From positions 128,001 through 192,000 of IMG/VR virus record IMGVR_UViG_3300033273_000374: 64,000 nucleotides of DNA. The stretch is one strand, 5' to 3'. A program made the position numbers and the translations under genes. Numbering within the stretch: the first letter of the stretch is position 1; each line of letters opens with the position of its first letter. Below the pieces are notes generated by a model, which ran no database searches, had not been told where the DNA came from, and was given only the letters and a program-made list of their open reading frames with translations. Positions 4,194-44,622 of this stretch are shown here, piece after piece. This stretch comes from a virus. Its lineage: Duplodnaviria; Heunggongvirae; Uroviricota; Caudoviricetes.

Positions 4194-6494
4194 CTATATT
4201 GTACAACTGTCACAGTCTTCTTCAAACTGCTCTTCGCTTGGTGCCAATAGTACAATCTGTTCACGCTCGTTGATGTCATCACCAGATCCATCATGCGTGT
4301 TAAAATAATACAACTGCTTGTGACCATATTTATAAGCAAGCAATAGGTGTTGTAACATAGCACTCATTGGGATCTTTTCATCTTCATAATGCACAGGATT
4401 GTAACTGGTGTTTACACTAATACCTTGGTCAATGTACTTTTGTAACACAGCCATGATCTTTAGATATCCTTCGGGTGATTTTTGATCCCATAACAAATCA
4501 TATTTGTTTTTTAGTCTTGGAAACCCTGGTACAACCTGCTTTAGTACACCATCTTTTGATTGCTTTACACTTACAAAACTGCGAGGTGGTTCAATGCCAT
4601 TGGTGCTGTTTGAGATCTGCGCACTTGTTTCTGCAGGCATCAGTGCCATCAGTGTGCTGTTACGAATGCCGTTTGTCTTGAGTTGTTCACGCAACCCTGC
4701 CCAATCCATGCGTTCAACATGCGGCACTAGTTCATCCACATCACGTTTGTAAGTTTGGTTAGGTGTAATACCTGCACCATACTTTGTTTCATGCACCAAT
4801 GGAATAGCACCTTGTTCTTGTGCTAGATCTGCACTGGCTTTTATCAAATAGTAACTCCATGCTTCTGCATATTTGTCAATGAGTTCCAAATTTGGATCGC
4901 CGTATGTGGTGTCATTCTTTGCTAAAAAGTATGCAAAATTTACAATACCAATGCCCAAAGGACGACGATTCATTGTGCTACGTTGTGCTGCTTTTACAGG
5001 ATAGTCCTGATATGTGAGCAATGCATCCAATCCACGCACTGCAAGTTCACAGGGCTTGGCAAAATCTTGTGGGTCTTTTATAAGTCCCCAATTGATTGCG
5101 CTGAGTGTACACAGTGCAATTTCGCCTTCTTCGTCGTTGAAGTCGTTGAGTGGCTTTGTGGGCAAGTTAATCTCGCAACACAAATTGCTTTGACGCACAG
5201 GTGCAAGTTCAGGTAAAAACGCACCATGATCATTTGCATGATCCACATTCATTAGATAGATGCGACCTGTGTTTTTGCGTTCTTCCATGAATGCACTGAA
5301 CAGCACTGCAGCCTTTACGGTCTTTTTACGGATGCTGGTTTTGCGTTCTGCTGCTTCATATAGTTCTTTGAACCGTTTTTGATCTGCAAAGAAAGCATCA
5401 TACAATCCAGGCACATCACTTGGTGAAAACAGTGTGATATCTCCGCCAGCAATTAGTCTTTCATAGAACAATTTTGAGAACTGAACTCCGTAATCCATGT
5501 GGCGTACTCTGTTGTCTTCCGTTCCTTTATTGTTTTTAAGCACAAGCAGATCTTCAACTTCGTAGTGCCAAATTGGATAGTACAGTGTGGCTGCGCCGTT
5601 TCGCACACCGCCTTGACTACATGATCTTGTAGCGGATTGAAACATCTTATAGAAGGGGATAACGCCTGTATGGTATGCATCTCCTGCTCGTATTGGCGAG
5701 CCCAACGCTCGTATTCTGCCTGCTCCGATGCCAATGCCGGCTTTTTGACTAACATATTTAACGATACTACTAGTAGTAGCATTAATACTATCCAAACTAT
5801 CATCTGTCTCAATAAGGACACACGAGGAGAACTGCTTTTGTGGAGTTCGTACACCAGCCATAACAGGAGTAGGAAGGCTGATATAGAATGTAGATATTGC
5901 GTCATAATAATCCTTCACCCAACGAAGTCGTGTTTCTTTTGGGTACTGCATAAACAGTGTTGCCGCAATGCACATGTATGCCATTTGCGGTGTTTCAAAG
6001 ATCTCACCCGTTACACGGTTCTTTACTAGATACTTTCCACGCCACTGTTCCATACCTGCATAGGTAAGGTCTTCGTCTCTATCATGCTTGATGTAACTGT
6101 TGAGCGTATTCCATTCTTCTTCGGTATACTCAGTTACTAACTCTTTTGTATAAAATCCTCTTTTGACATTTTTCTGCACTAGTGCATAAATGTGCCATGG
6201 TTCAAATTGACCATACACCATTTTGCGCAAATGGTAATTGATTAGTCTTCCAGCTACCCACTGATATCCTGGTGTTTCTTCACTGATTAGATCGGCTGCA
6301 CTTTTTATAAGTGTTTCTTGAATGTCTACTGTTGAGATACCATTGTAAAATTGCAATGAACTGCGAATCTCAACTTCACTAGCACTTACACCTGTAATCC
6401 CTTCGCAGGCGTAAAAAACTACTTTGTGTAATTTTTCTAGATCAATTGATTCTTTGTTGCCATTGCGTTTTGTAACTGTTAGTGCTTGGTTCAT
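4194..6494 (-). CDS. nrdA: Ribonucleotide reductase class Ia alpha subunit
   Basis: ATP cone (VTKRNG), FSSCVL, SNLCCEI, C-terminal CDSC; no intein. Confidence 0.98.
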   Translation of the reverse strand: MNQALTVTKRNGNKESIDLEKLHKVVFYACEGITGVSASEVEIRSSLQFYNGISTVDIQETLIKSAADLISEETPGYQWVAGRLINYHLRKMVYGQFEPWHIYALVQKNVKRGFYTKELVTEYTEEEWNTLNSYIKHDRDEDLTYAGMEQWRGKYLVKNRVTGEIFETPQMAYMCIAATLFMQYPKETRLRWVKDYYDAISTFYISLPTPVMAGVRTPQKQFSSCVLIETDDSLDSINATTSSIVKYVSQKAGIGIGAGRIRALGSPIRAGDAYHTGVIPFYKMFQSATRSCSQGGVRNGAATLYYPIWHYEVEDLLVLKNNKGTEDNRVRHMDYGVQFSKLFYERLIAGGDITLFSPSDVPGLYDAFFADQKRFKELYEAAERKTSIRKKTVKAAVLFSAFMEERKNTGRIYLMNVDHANDHGAFLPELAPVRQSNLCCEINLPTKPLNDFNDEEGEIALCTLSAINWGLIKDPQDFAKPCELAVRGLDALLTYQDYPVKAAQRSTMNRRPLGIGIVNFAYFLAKNDTTYGDPNLELIDKYAEAWSYYLIKASADLAQEQGAIPLVHETKYGAGITPNQTYKRDVDELVPHVERMDWAGLREQLKTNGIRNSTLMALMPAETSAQISNSTNGIEPPRSFVSVKQSKDGVLKQVVPGFPRLKNKYDLLWDQKSPEGYLKIMAVLQKYIDQGISVNTSYNPVHYEDEKIPMSAMLQHLLLAYKYGHKQLYYFNTHDGSGDDINEREQIVLLAPSEEQFEEDCDSCTI

Positions 6495-20502: not shown

Positions 20503-20747
20503 TTTGACTCACCTAATTTTTGTGCGCCACGCTTAAACTTTTTGGTATCACGTCCTCTGATGCTGTTGATAAGTCTGCGTTCTAAGTCGCCAGCAACTGC
20601 TTCGTCGTAGTGTTCATAAAACTCGTCAATTAAATTAATAGCACTTTCAATGATTTGACTACCACGTGATTCAAATACATGCTGTCTATCACGCTCGTGT
20701 ATCATGTTATTAAGTTCATTTAAAATACTGCGAGTTTGTTTTTTCAT
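20499..20747 (-). CDS. Hypothetical phage protein
   Basis: TRSIL.EL...ESR...I.SAINL...LERRL.NSI; TAAATA upstream. Confidence 0.65.
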   Translation of the reverse strand: MKKQTRSILNELNNMIHERDRQHVFESRGSQIIESAINLIDEFYEHYDEAVAGDLERRLINSIRGRDTKKFKRGAQKLGESK

Positions 20748-20807
20748 TACCTAGCACCCGATTTAATTTATTTATCGTTAAATACAGTATACTTGGAGGA
20801 GTAGGAG

Positions 20808-21539
20808 ATGTCAATACAAGATAACCCTGGCGGCCATTTCGCTGAATTGGCCCGTATAGCATACATGACAGAAAAAGAAAGTAGACCTATTGCTAAAAAG
20901 ATGGGATATAAGAAAACAAAACTCATCGATCAAAACGGTGCAGAGTGTCTTTTTTTAGAAAATGACGACACACTGGTGTTAGCATTCCGTGGAACAGAGC
21001 CCAAAGAGTTCTCAGATATTAAAGCAGATCTCAAAGCATGGAAGCGTAAAAGTAAAACCTGGGGCATGGTCCACGCAGGTTTTTATGAATATCTCAATAA
21101 AATTTGGGAAAGTGTGTTAAGACACATCAACTACGGCGACAGAGAAACAAAAAAATTGTATATTTGTGGACACAGTCTTGGTGGTGCAATGGCCACACTT
21201 GCTGCAAGTCGTTTGCAAGATCGTGTGATAGGATGTTACACCTATGGATCGCCACGTGTGGGTGGTCGTGTTTGGCGTAGCAAATGCACATTTGAACATC
21301 ACAGATACGTCAACAACAATGACATTGTGCCACGTGTTCCATTTTGGATTATGGGTTTTAGACACTATGGCGAATTACACTATATCAATCATTATGGTAA
21401 TATTCGTAAACTCACAGCCTGGCAGAAGTGTAAAGATCAATGGCGTGGACGATTGAGAGCATGGCAAAAGCGTGAGTTCTTTGATGGTGCTCGAGATCAC
21501 AGCATGGTTCAATACAGTAAAAAAATTAACAAGAGTTGA
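20808..21539 (+). CDS. Lipase class 3 (alpha/beta hydrolase)
   Basis: AFRGT, VHAGF, GHSLGGAMA, TYGSPRVG, DIVP, DHS; strong GGAGGAG SD. Confidence 0.92.
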   Translation: MSIQDNPGGHFAELARIAYMTEKESRPIAKKMGYKKTKLIDQNGAECLFLENDDTLVLAFRGTEPKEFSDIKADLKAWKRKSKTWGMVHAGFYEYLNKIWESVLRHINYGDRETKKLYICGHSLGGAMATLAASRLQDRVIGCYTYGSPRVGGRVWRSKCTFEHHRYVNNNDIVPRVPFWIMGFRHYGELHYINHYGNIRKLTAWQKCKDQWRGRLRAWQKREFFDGARDHSMVQYSKKINKS

Positions 21540-40879: not shown

Positions 40880-41513
40880 GAATTGCCTCTGCTATCCGTT
40901 GATGTCCTAGTTCTAACGGATGACCGCCTGGTCCTTTGGGTGCATCTCCCATTATTTCTACCATTGAAGTATCGGGCCATCCTACAAACGCTGCGATATC
41001 TATCATAGAAATAAGGTCATCTGCTTTGTGATCCAATGTATGTATTAGATTCAAATTGTCAAATGTATTTACAAATCTATACTCAACATTGTTTTGTTTT
41101 AAAAAACTTTGCAACAATACAACCTGTCTCACCCAGTTGCGAAATTCATACACAACTTCACTGTGCAAGGTTAGCCAACGTGCTATGCCTGGCCTATCAA
41201 CATCTTTTGCTTGATCCGGGTGCAACCAATAAGCAAGTTCTGAACATCCAGGCCATATGGTAAATGCACCATGCATGTCATTGAACTCTTGTCTGCCGCA
41301 ACTGGTCCAACCTACCACAACTAGATCTGGATCATGTTCAATAACAGCATTAATTGTGCGCTTTACAAAAAAATGATTGCTAGTGCCTCTGCGGCCTTCA
41401 TTGATGACTTTGTAGCCCAATTGCTTGCCTAGCACATGCGGCCATGCATTATTACGATCTTCTAGTTCTTCACCATACGTGAAACTATCGCCTACTGTGT
41501 ATAACTTTTTCAT
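40854..41513 (-). CDS. SGNH-like protein
   Basis: GDSFTYG, G.SN, WT...R, GHP...GH; likely start MKKLY. Confidence 0.6.
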   Translation of the reverse strand: MKKLYTVGDSFTYGEELEDRNNAWPHVLGKQLGYKVINEGRRGTSNHFFVKRTINAVIEHDPDLVVVGWTSCGRQEFNDMHGAFTIWPGCSELAYWLHPDQAKDVDRPGIARWLTLHSEVVYEFRNWVRQVVLLQSFLKQNNVEYRFVNTFDNLNLIHTLDHKADDLISMIDIAAFVGWPDTSMVEIMGDAPKGPGGHPLELGHQRIAEAIHAHINTGR

Positions 41514-41530
41514 AATATCCATTGTAGCAT

Positions 41531-41567
41531 AAAATGAGTGGCTAGTCTATTTCTAAACTAGCCACTC
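41531..41567 (-). terminator. Terminator hairpin of sRNA unit 2
   Basis: GAGTGGCTAGT-loop-ACTAGCCACTC then ATTTT. Confidence 0.7.
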
Positions 41568-41572
41568 TGTGT

Positions 41573-41616
41573 ACAGTCGTGATTGGAGGAGAGAGGAGAG
41601 AGGAGCTCACGACTGC
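41573..41616 (-). ncRNA. Candidate sRNA hairpin with anti-SD loop (unit 2)
   Basis: Stem CAGUCGUGA/UCACGACUG; loop GCUCCUCUCUCCUCUCUCCUCCAA. Confidence 0.6.
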
Positions 41617-41656
41617 AAACCGTTAAATTTTTGTGTTAGCCATAAGTAGCTTGGGT

Positions 41657-41728
41657 GAGTAGGGGGAAATTAATCCCCCTACCCGTTTCATCACAGTCCT
41701 CGTGGAAGAAGAGAGAGGGGAGGACTGT
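41657..41728 (-). ncRNA. Candidate sRNA: anti-SD-loop hairpin plus GC-rich second hairpin (unit 1)
   Basis: ACAGUCCUC/GAGGACUGU stem with loop CCCUCUCUCUUCUUCCAC; then GGGUAGGGGGA/UCCCCCUACUC hairpin. Confidence 0.6.
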
Positions 41729-41741
41729 AAATGAACTCTTG

Positions 41742-42668
41742 TTATGTCATCTTCATACAGGTTGTTTCTGCAAGTTTTTTCCAGTTGCTAGATATCCTCT
41801 TAAGGTCTGCAAGTTTGAGTGCCATACGCAAACTCATCTCACGAAACCTCTCAGGCTGGTCTTGCATAAAATTAATTATCTCTTGTTCTTCTTCCTTGCT
41901 AAAATTATATCCTTCAAACAAGTCTCCTTTGCGAGCAATTTGCTTGATGCGTAACAGTTTATCACGCATCGTGTCCAATGTAAGGTCTACATAGTGCGCA
42001 CGACTCATTAGTGCTTCTAAGTGATCCTGTAACCTTTTGCTTTTTACATTCTCAAACTTGATGTTGGTGACAAAGCAAGCACTGCCCTTGAATACAAATG
42101 AATCAGGGATTCCTTCATTGCGTAATTTTACACTGTCCGCATTCCAGAAGATCTTACGCTTCTTTCCGCTGTCCAGTGCTGCTTTAAGTATGTTCAATGA
42201 CAAGTCGTCCATTAGGACACTATCACAGTCATCAAACACCACCACGTTACCTTTACCACTGTATTCGTAAAGTTTGGCATACAATCCAAGTGCAGTCATT
42301 GCACCTTTGACAACTTCAAACGGACGCTTTTGATTTGCTATATCACCAAAAATGTTTTGCCGTTCTAACGTGGTCATTACACCATAACTTTTACCAACGC
42401 CCGGTGGCCCGGTAACAATCATTGCACGGATGTCACCTGCCTGCAAACTAGCAGTCATGGTATTCAAGATCTCGAAACGCTCTTCAATTTCTTGCATCCG
42501 TGTTTCTTCATCTACTAAATCATTTGCATTGGCATTTGGTAAGCCAATAATTTTACACTCAATACCTTTTTTATACAAACGTGTCTGAGCAGCCTTTACA
42601 GCGGCTTGTGTTTTGTAGCTCTTCTCAACACCTTTGTTATCTACCAGTTTAAACATCTCTCGCTCCAA
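41742..42668 (-). CDS. AAA+/P-loop ATPase
   Basis: GPPGVGKS, VFDDCD, LKAALD, TN, SR. Confidence 0.85.
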   Translation of the reverse strand: MEREMFKLVDNKGVEKSYKTQAAVKAAQTRLYKKGIECKIIGLPNANANDLVDEETRMQEIEERFEILNTMTASLQAGDIRAMIVTGPPGVGKSYGVMTTLERQNIFGDIANQKRPFEVVKGAMTALGLYAKLYEYSGKGNVVVFDDCDSVLMDDLSLNILKAALDSGKKRKIFWNADSVKLRNEGIPDSFVFKGSACFVTNIKFENVKSKRLQDHLEALMSRAHYVDLTLDTMRDKLLRIKQIARKGDLFEGYNFSKEEEQEIINFMQDQPERFREMSLRMALKLADLKRISSNWKKLAETTCMKMT

Positions 42669-42686: not shown

Positions 42687-42717
42687 ATAATAGCATCTTT
42701 TACAGATGTGTCAACCT
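42687..42717 (-). promoter_or_regulatory. Early sigma70-type promoter
   Basis: AGGTTGACA-N13-TGCTATTAT. Confidence 0.75.
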
Positions 42718-42720
42718 AAT

Positions 42721-43077
42721 TTATGCACGACCTGTAAGATAACGTGGTCCTGTCCATGCAACAGTGTAACCACCGTCTAAGATATTACCACGTGGAGCGT
42801 TTCTTGCTGGCGCATTAAAACCAGCTGGTTTAAGGATATCACCTTTATTAAACTTTTTGTCATTGTCTGTGGCAACAACAAAACCCCAAACACTACCACC
42901 ATTGCGGTTGGTAATTTTAATGTATTTGGAACCTTTGGTGTATCCAAGCTCTGAATCAAAATCTGCAACTCTTTGAACATCACGATCGCTAAGTTTGTTT
43001 GTTTTGGAACACTTTTTGATCCAGTTAATGTAATCAGCTACGATATCGTTTAACAGTTGATCAATTTGCTGTTGCAT
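42721..43077 (-). CDS. Early hypothetical protein
   Basis: G.KYIKI, SVWGFV, GDILKPA...PA; GGAGAGAGG SD before MQQQ. Confidence 0.75.
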   Translation of the reverse strand: MQQQIDQLLNDIVADYINWIKKCSKTNKLSDRDVQRVADFDSELGYTKGSKYIKITNRNGGSVWGFVVATDNDKKFNKGDILKPAGFNAPARNAPRGNILDGGYTVAWTGPRYLTGRA

Positions 43078-43109
43078 TTCCTCTCTCCATGCATTTATCT
43101 TATACATAC

Positions 43110-43140
43110 ATAATAGCAAATTGTGCCAATTAGTCAACCT
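43110..43140 (-). promoter_or_regulatory. Early sigma70-type promoter
   Basis: AGGTTGACT-N13-TGCTATTAT. Confidence 0.7.
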
Positions 43141-43288
43141 CTTTTTTTGGTTTTTTCTTATTTTTTCCCCAGGCACTGGTATAAACTTCTTCGCTACGTG
43201 CACCTGGTTCGCACACAGTGATTTTACCACCTTTGGCAAGATACTCTTTAACAGCAGCTTCGTAATCTTCGCGTTCATTTTTATCCAT
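43130..43288 (-). CDS. Small early protein
   Basis: EYLAKGGKITVC; AGGAG SD before MDKN. Confidence 0.65.
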   Translation of the reverse strand: MDKNEREDYEAAVKEYLAKGGKITVCEPGARSEEVYTSAWGKNKKKPKKEVD

Positions 43289-43299
43289 TGGTTTTTCTC

Positions 43300-43431
43300 C
43301 TAGTGTTTTCCGGTACGAACAGGCAATCCCTGATTCATATAGTCGTTGCGCACCGACAAAATCTGTGCTGGTGTCATGTATTCCCACACCAGCAGTTTGC
43401 CGTCTGGCATTGCTATTTCTAACCAATACAT
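43300..43431 (-). CDS. 43-aa early protein (not in ORF track)
   Basis: MYWLEIAMPDGKLLVWEYM...; AAGGAG SD after promoter. Confidence 0.65.
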   Translation of the reverse strand: MYWLEIAMPDGKLLVWEYMTPAQILSVRNDYMNQGLPVRTGKH

Positions 43432-43461
43432 TACACACTCCTTGTTTGTTTAACTATACAT

Positions 43462-43489
43462 ACAATAGCATAAATTGCTAGACTGTCAA
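43462..43489 (-). promoter_or_regulatory. Early sigma70-type promoter
   Basis: TTGACA-N13-TGCTATTGT. Confidence 0.72.
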
Positions 43490-43492
43490 TCT

Positions 43493-43834
43493 TTATGAAC
43501 CAGCAATCATTCTAAAACTGCCATCTTCTTGTAAACGGAAACCTTCAACAAACACATGCCAGTCACCGCAATGACGTTTGGCTGATTGGAAAACTGATTC
43601 TGCTGCTCTCCAAAAACCTTCTACAGTGTTTTCATGAGTGAAGTGGCTGAACTCACATTCTTGCATGTTCTCGTCAAATGCACGATATGTAATGCGATAA
43701 CATTCACGCTCTTCGTCAACAACCTTATCGCTGAGGTTAACAATCTCTTCGTCAAACATGCTCCAGCGAGTCTCAAATCCTAACTCGTTGCGCTTGTTGT
43801 CTAAGTCTTCGATAACTGCGTATAAGTTGTTCAT
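43493..43834 (-). CDS. Early hypothetical protein
   Basis: GDWH.FVE.F; GGAGAG SD. Confidence 0.72.
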   Translation of the reverse strand: MNNLYAVIEDLDNKRNELGFETRWSMFDEEIVNLSDKVVDEERECYRITYRAFDENMQECEFSHFTHENTVEGFWRAAESVFQSAKRHCGDWHVFVEGFRLQEDGSFRMIAGS

Positions 43835-43861
43835 TTCTCTCTCCGTTTTTTAACTATACAC

Positions 43862-43892
43862 ATATTAGCATGTATGTGTATACTGTCAACCT
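43862..43892 (-). promoter_or_regulatory. Early sigma70-type promoter
   Basis: AGGTTGACA-N13-TGCTAATAT. Confidence 0.72.
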
Positions 43893-44023
43893 AATAAATG
43901 CATTTTTTTGAAACTTTTTTTTCTGCTACTATATCATGTATCAAAAACATTGTTTAGATTGAGAAAACCTACAATATTGTGTAGATAACTTTTTTTTATT
44001 TTTTTTTGCCTTTTTGTAGGATA

Positions 44024-44221
44024 TTATACCAGTAAAAATGCTAGAATACCCGCAACAACCACATATGGCATCAACTTCCAGCCCAATCTAAAACCAGCTA
44101 TTATTACTGCAACAACAACACCAATGGTAAAGCCCATTGCTAATAGGTGCAGTATCAAATCCATTTTGTCATACACTAGCTCAAATGTGCCTTGATCACT
44201 TACTTGGAATTCCATCTTCAA
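44024..44221 (-). CDS. Small membrane protein
   Basis: Two hydrophobic segments; start uncertain. Confidence 0.55.
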   Translation of the reverse strand: MKMEFQVSDQGTFELVYDKMDLILHLLAMGFTIGVVVAVIIAGFRLGWKLMPYVVVAGILAFLLV

Positions 44222-44396
44222 ACCTTCCTTCTACACTCTTGATGTGTTTGCATTTGCGACGTGCAACACAGTTACAATCAAACCCGCTATCTAGCATGGT
44301 AACAGTGTACACATCGCCCTTGCTGCCTGTTACAGGCCATTGCACACCCACAAATGGGTGTCCTTTTGTATTTACTATCTCACTAGGGTGAGCCAT
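44196..44396 (-). CDS. SWIM zinc-finger protein
   Basis: GS.G..Y.V...C.C....CKH. Confidence 0.75.
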   Translation of the reverse strand: MAHPSEIVNTKGHPFVGVQWPVTGSKGDVYTVTMLDSGFDCNCVARRKCKHIKSVEGRFEDGIPSK

Positions 44397-44554
44397 TAAG
44401 CAGTAACCTTGCCAACAACAACACCAGCACCGTTAATTTTACCGAGAAAGTTAATGTGTGAATTGAACTGCTGAGCCAACACATTCATGTCTGCAGTTTT
44501 TCTAATTTTGCGCATTGCATCTAATGCGTTTTGCAATTCTACTGAATAAGTCAT
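44396..44554 (-). CDS. Small early protein
   Basis: MTYSVELQ...; follows promoter. Confidence 0.55.
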   Translation of the reverse strand: MTYSVELQNALDAMRKIRKTADMNVLAQQFNSHINFLGKINGAGVVVGKVTA

Positions 44555-44591
44555 TGCTTTATTCTCTCTACTGTTTTTTTCCAACATATAT

Positions 44592-44622
44592 ACAATAGCA
44601 CAACAACACATGTTGTCAACCT
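44592..44622 (-). promoter_or_regulatory. Early sigma70-type promoter
   Basis: AGGTTGACA-N13-TGCTATTGT. Confidence 0.72.

Follow-up and report, generated by a model that had tools for sequence, protein, structure and literature searches.

Why does the spacer behind an ATPase gene of a giant phage carry two hairpins that each display a long loop made almost entirely of C and U, and what might such loops be for? The locus lies in a 64,000-nucleotide (nt) stretch, hereafter the window, which comprises bases 128001-192000 of the IMG/VR record IMGVR_UViG_3300033273_000374 (202,913 bases, called G000 here; 39.7% G+C, estimated completeness 57%). Its source is an uncultured aquatic giant (jumbo) phage of the lytic type. 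A reading made from the letters only (the sequence-only reading) had placed two units on the minus strand, which is the coding strand for the genes around the locus, and had taken them for tandem small RNAs that block translation broadly through anti-Shine-Dalgarno (anti-SD) loops. The sequence details it gave are all present, and the two units lie at 41536-41728. Our comparison with related loci firmly shows that the element is a conserved, structured RNA, folded from the gene-sense strand and carrying a seed-like loop. We read the two units as paralogues within a family of phage small RNAs that had not been described so far, and we name its members CU-loop RNAs.

The two units and their RNA family

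In both units a hairpin that exposes a C/U loop (H1) is followed by a second hairpin, and to this extent the "same architecture" ascribed to them earlier holds, but the units are not equivalent. H1 of unit 1 has a stem of 9 base pairs (bp) and an 18-nt loop (41702-41719); H1 of unit 2 has an 11-bp stem and a 24-nt loop (41583-41606), whose 3' core, CUCCUCCAA, is the conserved seed of the family. Both second hairpins had been described as terminator-like. That of unit 2 (H2) was called an intrinsic terminator by the terminator scan and runs into a U-rich tail, whereas its counterpart in unit 1 has no U tail and was not called by the scan, so that read-through into unit 2 is expected. When the spacer RNA was folded in the gene sense with RNAfold, four hairpins were obtained, and both C/U loops were unpaired in the minimum-free-energy as well as in the centroid structure. 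The folding energy of this strand is -84.8 kcal/mol, compared with -46.9 +/- 4.6 kcal/mol for dinucleotide shuffles (z = -8.3), and for the opposite strand z = -4.6. When the non-coding hairpins of the whole record were screened for stems of 7 bp or more and for loops that are at least 85% pyrimidine, only the H1 hairpins of units 1 and 2 were found; read on the plus strand, no purine run in the entire 203 kb is longer than those of these two loops. A third candidate (G000 1640-1673, i.e. L057, plus strand, with a 9-bp stem and a 16-nt pyrimidine loop) was discarded, as it lies inside an open reading frame (ORF) for a 97-aa hydrophobic membrane protein and is a coding coincidence outside the RNA family.

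We retrieved 47 IMG/VR loci with the ATPase protein and compared the DNA that follows each stop codon; a covariance model was built from 15 sequences, and a pattern scan of IMG/VR added further contigs. Model and scan together gave 28 matches of 52-114 bits and 24 distinct RNA sequences, which come from 18 of the 47 ATPase loci and from the contigs found by pattern search; unit 2 of the window matches the model with 78.8 bits. The family is found just after the stop codon of an nrdC.10-like AAA ATPase gene. The closest relatives (L002-L004) possess both units with different stems, and a further set (L005-L015, L017, L024 and L047) possesses a single unit, equivalent to unit 2. In more distant relatives GCUCCU or CCUCCCAC stands right after the ATPase stop codon, either single-stranded or in a loop: L016, L018-L023 and L048 have a single-stranded UUGCUCCUUA ahead of a terminator, and L032-L045 have a small hairpin with the loop (A)CCUCCCAC. 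The RNA element is absent from the surroundings of the ATPase and uvsW genes in the cultured relatives PA5oct, Cronobacter S13, Vibrio VAP7, Acinetobacter Acj9, Phosso and Atu_ph07.

Analysis of the aligned family members reveals an H1 with a stem of 11-16 bp and a loop of 17-24 nt. The 3' half of this loop, CUCCUCCA(A/G), hardly varies, and (C)UUGCUCCU is often found as its 5' half. H2 has a stem of 13-14 bp and a conserved loop, UUUAGAAAUAGA, and is followed by a U-rich stretch. In the model-guided alignment of the 24 sequences, standard pairs occupy 94.3% of 577 cells, as opposed to only 33-45% in a control in which the 3' partner columns were slid by 1-3 positions. Changes on both sides of a pair (i.e. 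double compensatory changes) occur in 17 of the 25 pairs (127 cells), and the covariation score was reached by none of 500 shuffles. H1 (helices 1 and 2) exhibits compensatory changes in 11 of its 12 pairs, and in H2 (helix 3) pairing reaches 98% and 6-7 pairs covary; the 15-sequence alignment gives the same picture. The alignment was fitted to the covariance model, and such fitting favours structure; the conclusion is independent of it because the stems of different sub-clades are visibly unrelated in sequence (e.g. CAGUCGUGA, GGGCCGCGA, CUGUAUC and UUUAGUGUC). The H1 stems thus change freely while the loop core CUCCUCCA stays fixed, which is the signature of a base-pairing seed.

The covariation also tells the strands apart. 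There are 65 G-U cells versus 12 A-C cells, and hence the folded strand is the gene-sense strand. The same counts, together with the better folding of the sense strand, rule out a CsrA-type sponge transcribed from the plus strand, and the idea of an R-loop or a replication origin was rejected because the RNA corresponds to the pyrimidine strand and the G-U covariation fits a folded RNA. Lack of conservation or covariation in relatives had been named in advance as what would speak against small RNAs at this place; the element is both kept and covarying, and this objection falls.

Unit 1 was found only in the window, in L002/L003, in L004 and in L086. In an alignment of four copies (from the window, L004, L002 and L086) the loop core CUCUCUCUUCUUC is invariant on four different stems, and an exact-word scan with TCTCTCTCTTCTTC for more copies returned only unrelated low-complexity matches, none of them in a hairpin context. 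Unit 2 is the ancestral, widely conserved gene, and unit 1 a lineage-specific extra copy with another seed and without a terminator tail. In L086 (IMGVR_UViG_3300020403_000087, about 5990-6050) the second hairpin of unit 1 pairs a GA-repeat 5' arm, GAGAAGAGAAGU, with a CU-repeat 3' arm; the GA-repeat arm is a possible internal partner of the C/U loop of the same transcript.

Just 5' of unit 2 lies an A/U-rich motif, at the place of which the nearest relatives have AAAAAUUUGAC(A/G)G in one to three copies just 5' of H1. It may be a processing site; elsewhere in three phage genomes no further copy turned up. Two other candidates in this region were dropped, namely AAAAATTTGACGG as a general promoter, because it is not recurrent in three genomes, and a small spacer ORF (MKRVGG...) as a gene, because its frame is broken in L004. 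A full-length family member (L247 6779-6892, 76.6 bits) was found on a 42-kb contig, PBLX01000009.1, of the metagenome-assembled genome "Legionellales bacterium SP228"; this contig is most likely phage DNA mis-binned into a bacterial genome and is at best a weak hint on the host.

Transcription signals around the RNA

The ATPase gene is driven by a promoter of early type, and no terminator was found between this promoter (42714) and the H2 terminator (41536), so that both units are expected among the early RNAs, at the 3' end of the ATPase message. Four near-identical promoters stand ahead of it (Table 1). All five share the form AGGTTGACA-16-TGcTATTAT/TATTGT/TAATAT, lie 400-750 nt apart and serve one small early gene each. 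The early leaders measure 27-33 nt, and three of the four in the upstream cluster have GA-repeat ribosome-binding sites, AGUAGAGAGAA, GGAGAGAGAA and GGAGAGAGGAA. The GGAGAGAG-type Shine-Dalgarno (SD) sequences that the sequence-only reading had pointed out upstream are real at 43088-43077 and 43845-43835, each behind a strong sigma70-type promoter. The promoter at 43137-43110, with its GGAGAGAGGAA site, sits inside a 185-aa frame (42721-43278, minus strand) with an in-frame internal ATG at 43077, and this frame may yield a 118-aa product, the 185-aa product, or both.

H2 acts as a terminator according to the scan, but it is also more than that, since its loop and 3' arm (UAGACU) double as the -35 hexamer of the promoter of the next gene, which encodes a GDSL/DUF6071 esterase. 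In relatives UAGAC(A/U) takes the place of the -35, and an extended -10 (TGnTAnAAT) follows 16-18 nt on in every relative; a hexamer required at the DNA level accounts for the conservation of the H2 loop. The -10 of the esterase promoter ends 7 nt before the ATG with no SD sequence between, and therefore the mRNA is probably leaderless. Over more than 20 distinct relatives this spacing is 5-7 nt, again with no SD sequence between. The RNA gene is thus fused to the promoter of what is probably a leaderless message.

As to a promoter of the RNA's own, the sequence TTGCAT-17-TA(T/C)AAT is found within the end of the ATPase gene in about eight relatives, with a start predicted at the foot of H1; in these relatives the RNA has the look of a gene of its own, about 95 nt long.

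The esterase is not the only gene with such a start. Among the strong sigma70-type promoters of the record, the -10 ends 6 nt before the ATG in eight cases and 7 nt before it in one, none ends 8-14 nt before an ATG, and the remaining ones have leaders of 21-32 nt with a GGAG site. Boxes of the late type, TAAATA, stand 4-8 nt before an ATG in 15 cases, including ORFs of 1142, 725, 670 and 630 aa, and several very large, probably structural genes behind these boxes may be leaderless. Altogether, an unusual share of the transcription units of this phage looks leaderless.

On the 3' side of the spacer the esterase gene is followed by a 212-aa ORF and a gene for a UvsW-type helicase. The latter is closest to UvsW of the jumbo phages Sinorhizobium Phosso (55%), Agrobacterium Atu_ph07 (52%) and Pseudomonas PA5oct (51%); no nucleotide similarity between the window and sequenced phages was found, and tRNA genes, looked for as a host clue, were not found in the window.

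Table 1. Features of the CU-loop RNA locus and of its predicted partners (positions in the window unless G000 or L055 is given)
Feature	Position	Strand	Remarks
Spacer holding both RNA units, 220 nt		-	between the ATPase gene and the esterase gene
Unit 1, hairpin H1	41728-41693	-	ACAGUCCUC stem, CCCUCUCUCUUCUUCCAC loop, GAGGACUGU stem
Unit 1, second hairpin	41684-41657	-	11 bp, GC-rich, loop UUAAUU
A/U-rich motif AAAUUUAACGG	41619-41630	-	just 5' of unit 2
Unit 2, hairpin H1	41617-41572	-	(UG)CAGUCGUGA stem, GCUCCUCUCUCCUCUCUCCUCCAA loop, UCACGACUG(UA) stem
Unit 2, hairpin H2	41567-41536, with tail to 41529	-	14-bp stem, loop UUUAGAAAUAGA, then AUUUUAU
nrdC.10-like AAA ATPase gene, phrog_1250	41742-42656	-	directly precedes the RNA
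Early-type promoter TTGACA-16-TGcTATTAT	42714-42687	-	drives the ATPase gene
Four further near-identical promoters	first hexamers 44619, 43889, 43489, 43137 (span 43077-44619)	-	ahead of the ATPase gene
Esterase promoter TAGACT-17-TACAAT	-35 41549-41544; extended -10 TGcTACAAT 41529-41521; ATG 41513	-
Leaderless-type starts in the window	62865, 37753, 28528, 11227	-	-10 at 6, once 7 nt; no SD sequence
Leaderless-type starts outside the window	G000 121382, 105646, 99653, 61801
674-aa ORF	G000 108890-110914 = L055 191-2215	-	outside the window
Lipase ribosome-binding region CUUGGAGGAGUAGGAGAUG	20788-20810	+	predicted loop-2 target, behind a TAAATA late-type box
Class-3 lipase gene	20808-21539	+	predicted loop-2 target

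Predicted partners and possible modes of action

In order to rank possible partners of the loops, 289 ORFs were called crudely, and RNAduplex energies were calculated for each loop against the translation-initiation region (TIR) of each ORF, taken as -30 to +6 around the start. Energies of -14 kcal/mol or lower were obtained for 11% of the TIRs, 3% of random sense coding windows and 0.2% of antisense windows, an excess that is expected for any anti-SD-like sequence. For loop 1 the analysis singled out the start of a 674-aa ORF (G000 110914), where 14 nt, GGAAGAAGAGAGAG, are exactly complementary to the loop (-26.4 kcal/mol). None of 200 mononucleotide and none of 200 dinucleotide shuffles of the loop equalled this match. 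This ORF has no Pfam, PHROG or PDB match; its neighbours in the ESM-Atlas are viral clusters in which about half of the members have an autotransporter barrel, and we take "autotransporter-like" as a lead only. The best partners of loop 2 are a staphylococcal-nuclease-like gene (G000 125206; -25.2 kcal/mol) and the class-3 lipase gene (-24.5 kcal/mol). The complement of the conserved seed including the AA that lies outside the SD sequence, UUGGAGGAG, occurs three times on both strands of the 203 kb, and two of these occurrences are in the TIRs of the nuclease and the lipase. The lipase gene stands behind a GTTAAATA late-type box and a GA-rich leader both in the window (20745-20810) and in the relative G002 (L058 1420-1462); with the GDSL esterase, the phage has at least two lipolytic enzymes.

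The earlier claim that the loops complement the SD sequences of early genes fared well. The predicted structures leave the loops open, and all but one of the five early leaders nearby pair with them at -14.5 to -21.0 kcal/mol, whereas the median over all TIRs is -7.3 kcal/mol. The individual values are -14.5, -15.6, -8.7 and -21.0 kcal/mol for the leaders of the four-promoter cluster and -17.6 kcal/mol for the ATPase leader, GGAGCGAGAG-AUG, with loop 2; the leaderless esterase start reaches -4.5 kcal/mol with the loops. Only one relative, G002 (117 kb, the contig of L024, with its own, different loop), has predicted targets and RNA on one contig. The lipase, a 50-aa ORF and the ATPase, which rank 3, 6 and 9 of 289 here, have orthologues that rank 3, 2 and 8 of 140 in G002.

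Taken together, the design of the loop, the target statistics of loop 1, the count of seed complements for loop 2 and the analogy with cuckoo/CcsR, LhrC and RNAIII lead us to give roughly even chances to the proposal that the CU-loop RNAs act by base-pairing and occlude the GA-rich ribosome-binding sites of selected messages. Transcription from the promoter at 42714 would yield both units early, at the 3' end of the ATPase message and up to the unit-2 terminator, and they would then perhaps be cut free from this message; in several relatives a TTGCAT-17-TATAAT promoter would set the start at the base of the stem and give a separate RNA of about 95 nt. The open loop would pair with GA-rich SD regions, block binding of the 30S subunit and perhaps trigger decay. 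A limited set of messages would be targeted, rather than all of them: the candidates are the 674-aa autotransporter-like ORF for loop 1, the staphylococcal-nuclease-like and class-3 lipase genes for loop 2, and also the GA-repeat leaders of the adjoining early genes and the ATPase mRNA itself, while host messages may be targets too. The broad-spectrum block of translation first proposed is not supported by these results, since several large, probably late or structural phage genes rely on GGAG sites, which makes a global SD-dependent block unlikely, and the statistics favour few targets. Of the features that define trans-acting anti-SD small RNAs as a functional class, a conserved single-stranded C/U seed in a loop and covarying stems are present, and so is a predicted Rho-independent terminator that could end a discrete transcript; an upstream sigma70-type promoter is seen in about eight relatives and not in the window phage.

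A number of observations weigh against action by base-pairing. No promoter is evident directly upstream of unit 1 or unit 2 in the window phage and its nearest relatives, and the 5' ends, processing and abundance of the RNAs are all inferred. The energies of loop 2 are reached by 23% of dinucleotide shuffles, and its 13-nt exact match is marginal (3% of shuffles). As the loops are extended anti-SD sequences, any strong SD site scores well with them, and as the strength of SD sequences is conserved between orthologues (Spearman 0.33-0.56 for anti-SD energy), the target ranks shared with G002 may reflect only strong ribosome-binding sites. In the relative G001, which has the RNA, no TIR beats shuffled loops, and the orthologues of the 674-aa gene have different TIRs and lie on contigs without the RNA.

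The absence of a recognisable promoter before the element in the window phage and several relatives, and its invariable place directly after the ATPase stop codon, would suit hairpins that are never released but serve in cis as a 3' untranslated region (UTR) of the ATPase mRNA, either as a stabiliser against 3' exonucleases or by folding back onto the GGAGCGAGAG site, with which loop 2 pairs at the energy and ranks given above. We consider this reading unlikely. A simple stabiliser has no need of a 17-24 nt loop of fixed sequence, the seed of unit 1 is different and has its best match at a distant gene, the ATPase start in G001 lacks a matching GA-rich leader, and the TTGCAT-17-TA(T/C)AAT promoter at the base of H1 in about eight relatives suggests an independent RNA.

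Alternatively, the loops could be decoys that sequester a host protein with a preference for C/U-rich single-stranded RNA (S1, a cold-shock protein, Hfq or Rho, for example) and thereby tip translation or termination to the advantage of the phage. Ribosomal protein S1 binds single strands rich in pyrimidines, and leaderless mRNAs can be translated without it; loops of 17-24 nt that are unstructured and almost pure pyrimidine, a phage with many leaderless-type starts and a relative (G001) without good base-pairing partners all suit such a role. It is the order of bases in the loop, beyond their composition, that is conserved, however, and the 14-nt complement of loop 1 at a TIR exceeds all shuffles, which makes the decoy a rather doubtful explanation.

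A more far-reaching scheme, which we regard as decidedly improbable, would make the CU-loop RNAs one half of a phage-run switch in the mode of initiation. Abundant anti-SD RNA made from the early unit would mask the host's and the phage's own early GA-rich leaders, and leaderless phage genes would escape, among them genes for replication and recombination that have sigma70-type promoters and several very large ones that have a TAAATA box. What keeps the idea alive is that the RNA gene is welded to a leaderless promoter in every relative and that many units look leaderless. Finally, conservation due to DNA-level signals only (the terminator of the early unit and the esterase promoter, with the C/U loops as a by-product) is very hard to credit, because the coincidence of the H2 loop and 3' arm with the -35 hexamer (TAGACA/T) and the extended -10 at 16-18 nt in every relative explain H2 but not H1, in which 11 of 12 pairs show compensatory changes, G-U pairs are many and a fixed loop core lies outside any promoter, nor the repetition of the H1 design in unit 1 without a promoter.

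Lytic and jumbo phages have hardly been explored for regulatory RNAs, and the known phage small RNAs come mostly from temperate coliphages. The present analysis adds a structured RNA family with strong comparative support that is absent from Rfam and extends across an uncultured aquatic jumbo-phage clade related to Atu_ph07, Phosso and PA5oct. It provides a clear seed and a short list of predicted targets (the nuclease, the lipase, the outer-membrane-type protein and the early leaders). As messages led by SD sequences and leaderless messages occur in one virus, it can be asked whether a phage RNA favours one mode of initiation; the initiation switch, if true, would be a new viral strategy of host takeover and temporal control. 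Should the RNA merely fine-tune a few genes, it would still be useful as an Rfam-type family for the annotation of marine viromes.

Comparison with known RNAs

A search of the whole window against Rfam (cmscan, gathering scores) gave no matches, cuckoo/ar14, AbcR and C4 included, and relaxing the threshold to E <= 10 for 41300-41900 brought up nothing but weak, unrelated matches, the best of which was SSRC10 with 23.5 bits against a cut-off of 56; identity with a known family was therefore rejected. The cuckoo RNAs are defined by 2-4 adjacent hairpins of 24-50 nt, all with the motif CCUCCUCCC in the loop and with stems that vary by compensatory change (PMC4615179). The hairpins of the window, 36 and 46 nt long and with variable stems in the family, fit this layout in part. 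The motif CCUCCUCCC is found in neither loop (CCCUCUCUCUUCUUCCAC, GCUCCUCUCUCCUCUCUCCUCCAA), the relatives have at best CUCCUCCUCCA(G/A), there is one C/U-loop hairpin per ancestral unit, the two C/U hairpins of the window are separated by another hairpin, and the loop of the second hairpin of unit 2 is UUUAGAAAUAGA. For AbcR/alpha-r15, with two anti-SD-type loops in a three-hairpin fold, there is no model match at E <= 10, nor does the phage c4 antisense RNA (Rfam C4) match. Membership in cuckoo/CcsR or AbcR, which the sequence-only reading had named for comparison, is thus not borne out: the defining motif is absent, the layout of the module is different and no model matches, and the same reasoning excludes C4.

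The likeness that remains is one of design. As in cuckoo/CcsR (RSs0680) and alpha-r14 (NfeR1) of Alphaproteobacteria, compensatory stems carry a fixed C/U-rich, anti-SD-like loop (PMC4615179, PMC8034643); the loops are within the 9-27 nt allowed for cuckoo, copies occur in tandem, and cuckoo RNAs often derive from the 3' part of the transcript of the upstream gene (PMC4615179, PMC8034643). In contrast to cuckoo, a CU-loop unit has one C/U loop, the loop of its second hairpin is different and bears a promoter element, and the RNA is encoded by a lytic-type jumbo phage beside an AAA ATPase gene rather than beside a DUF1127 gene. The C/U-rich loops of cuckoo/CcsR, RNAIII and LhrC act on ribosome-binding sites (PMC4615179, PMC4132741). 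LhrC1-5 of Listeria and RNAIII/RsaE/RoxS of Firmicutes, small RNAs with UCCC or C-rich loops, likewise direct C/U loop motifs against AG-rich SD sequences and come as multicopy or sibling genes with several seeds (PMC4132741, PMC4615179), but they exhibit no homology of sequence or structure to the phage-encoded RNAs described here, in which the continuous pyrimidine tracts are much longer.

Among phage RNAs, c4 of phages P1 and P7 is similar in being a small RNA processed from a longer transcript, with loops that pair in the region of a ribosome-binding site and prevent translation (PMC12197685). Unlike the CU-loop RNAs, it acts on one downstream message (icd-ant) in the immunity of temperate phages, and its loops are not pyrimidine tracts. 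In the icaR mRNA of Staphylococcus aureus, a UCCCC-type motif of the 3' UTR pairs with the SD sequence of the same message (5'-3' UTR pairing). An RNA element in the 3' UTR of the ATPase message resembles this case, which fits the cis reading; what sets the CU-loop RNAs apart is that their two-hairpin module is conserved and covaries, is preceded by a promoter of its own in several relatives and has been duplicated with a second seed. When the literature was searched for phage small RNAs whose loops are CU-rich or of anti-SD type, bacterial examples and small RNAs of temperate phages were all that came up. By analogy, the CU-loop RNAs would be a new RNA family in a new setting that works like the bacterial C/U-loop anti-SD small RNAs and like c4 of phages.

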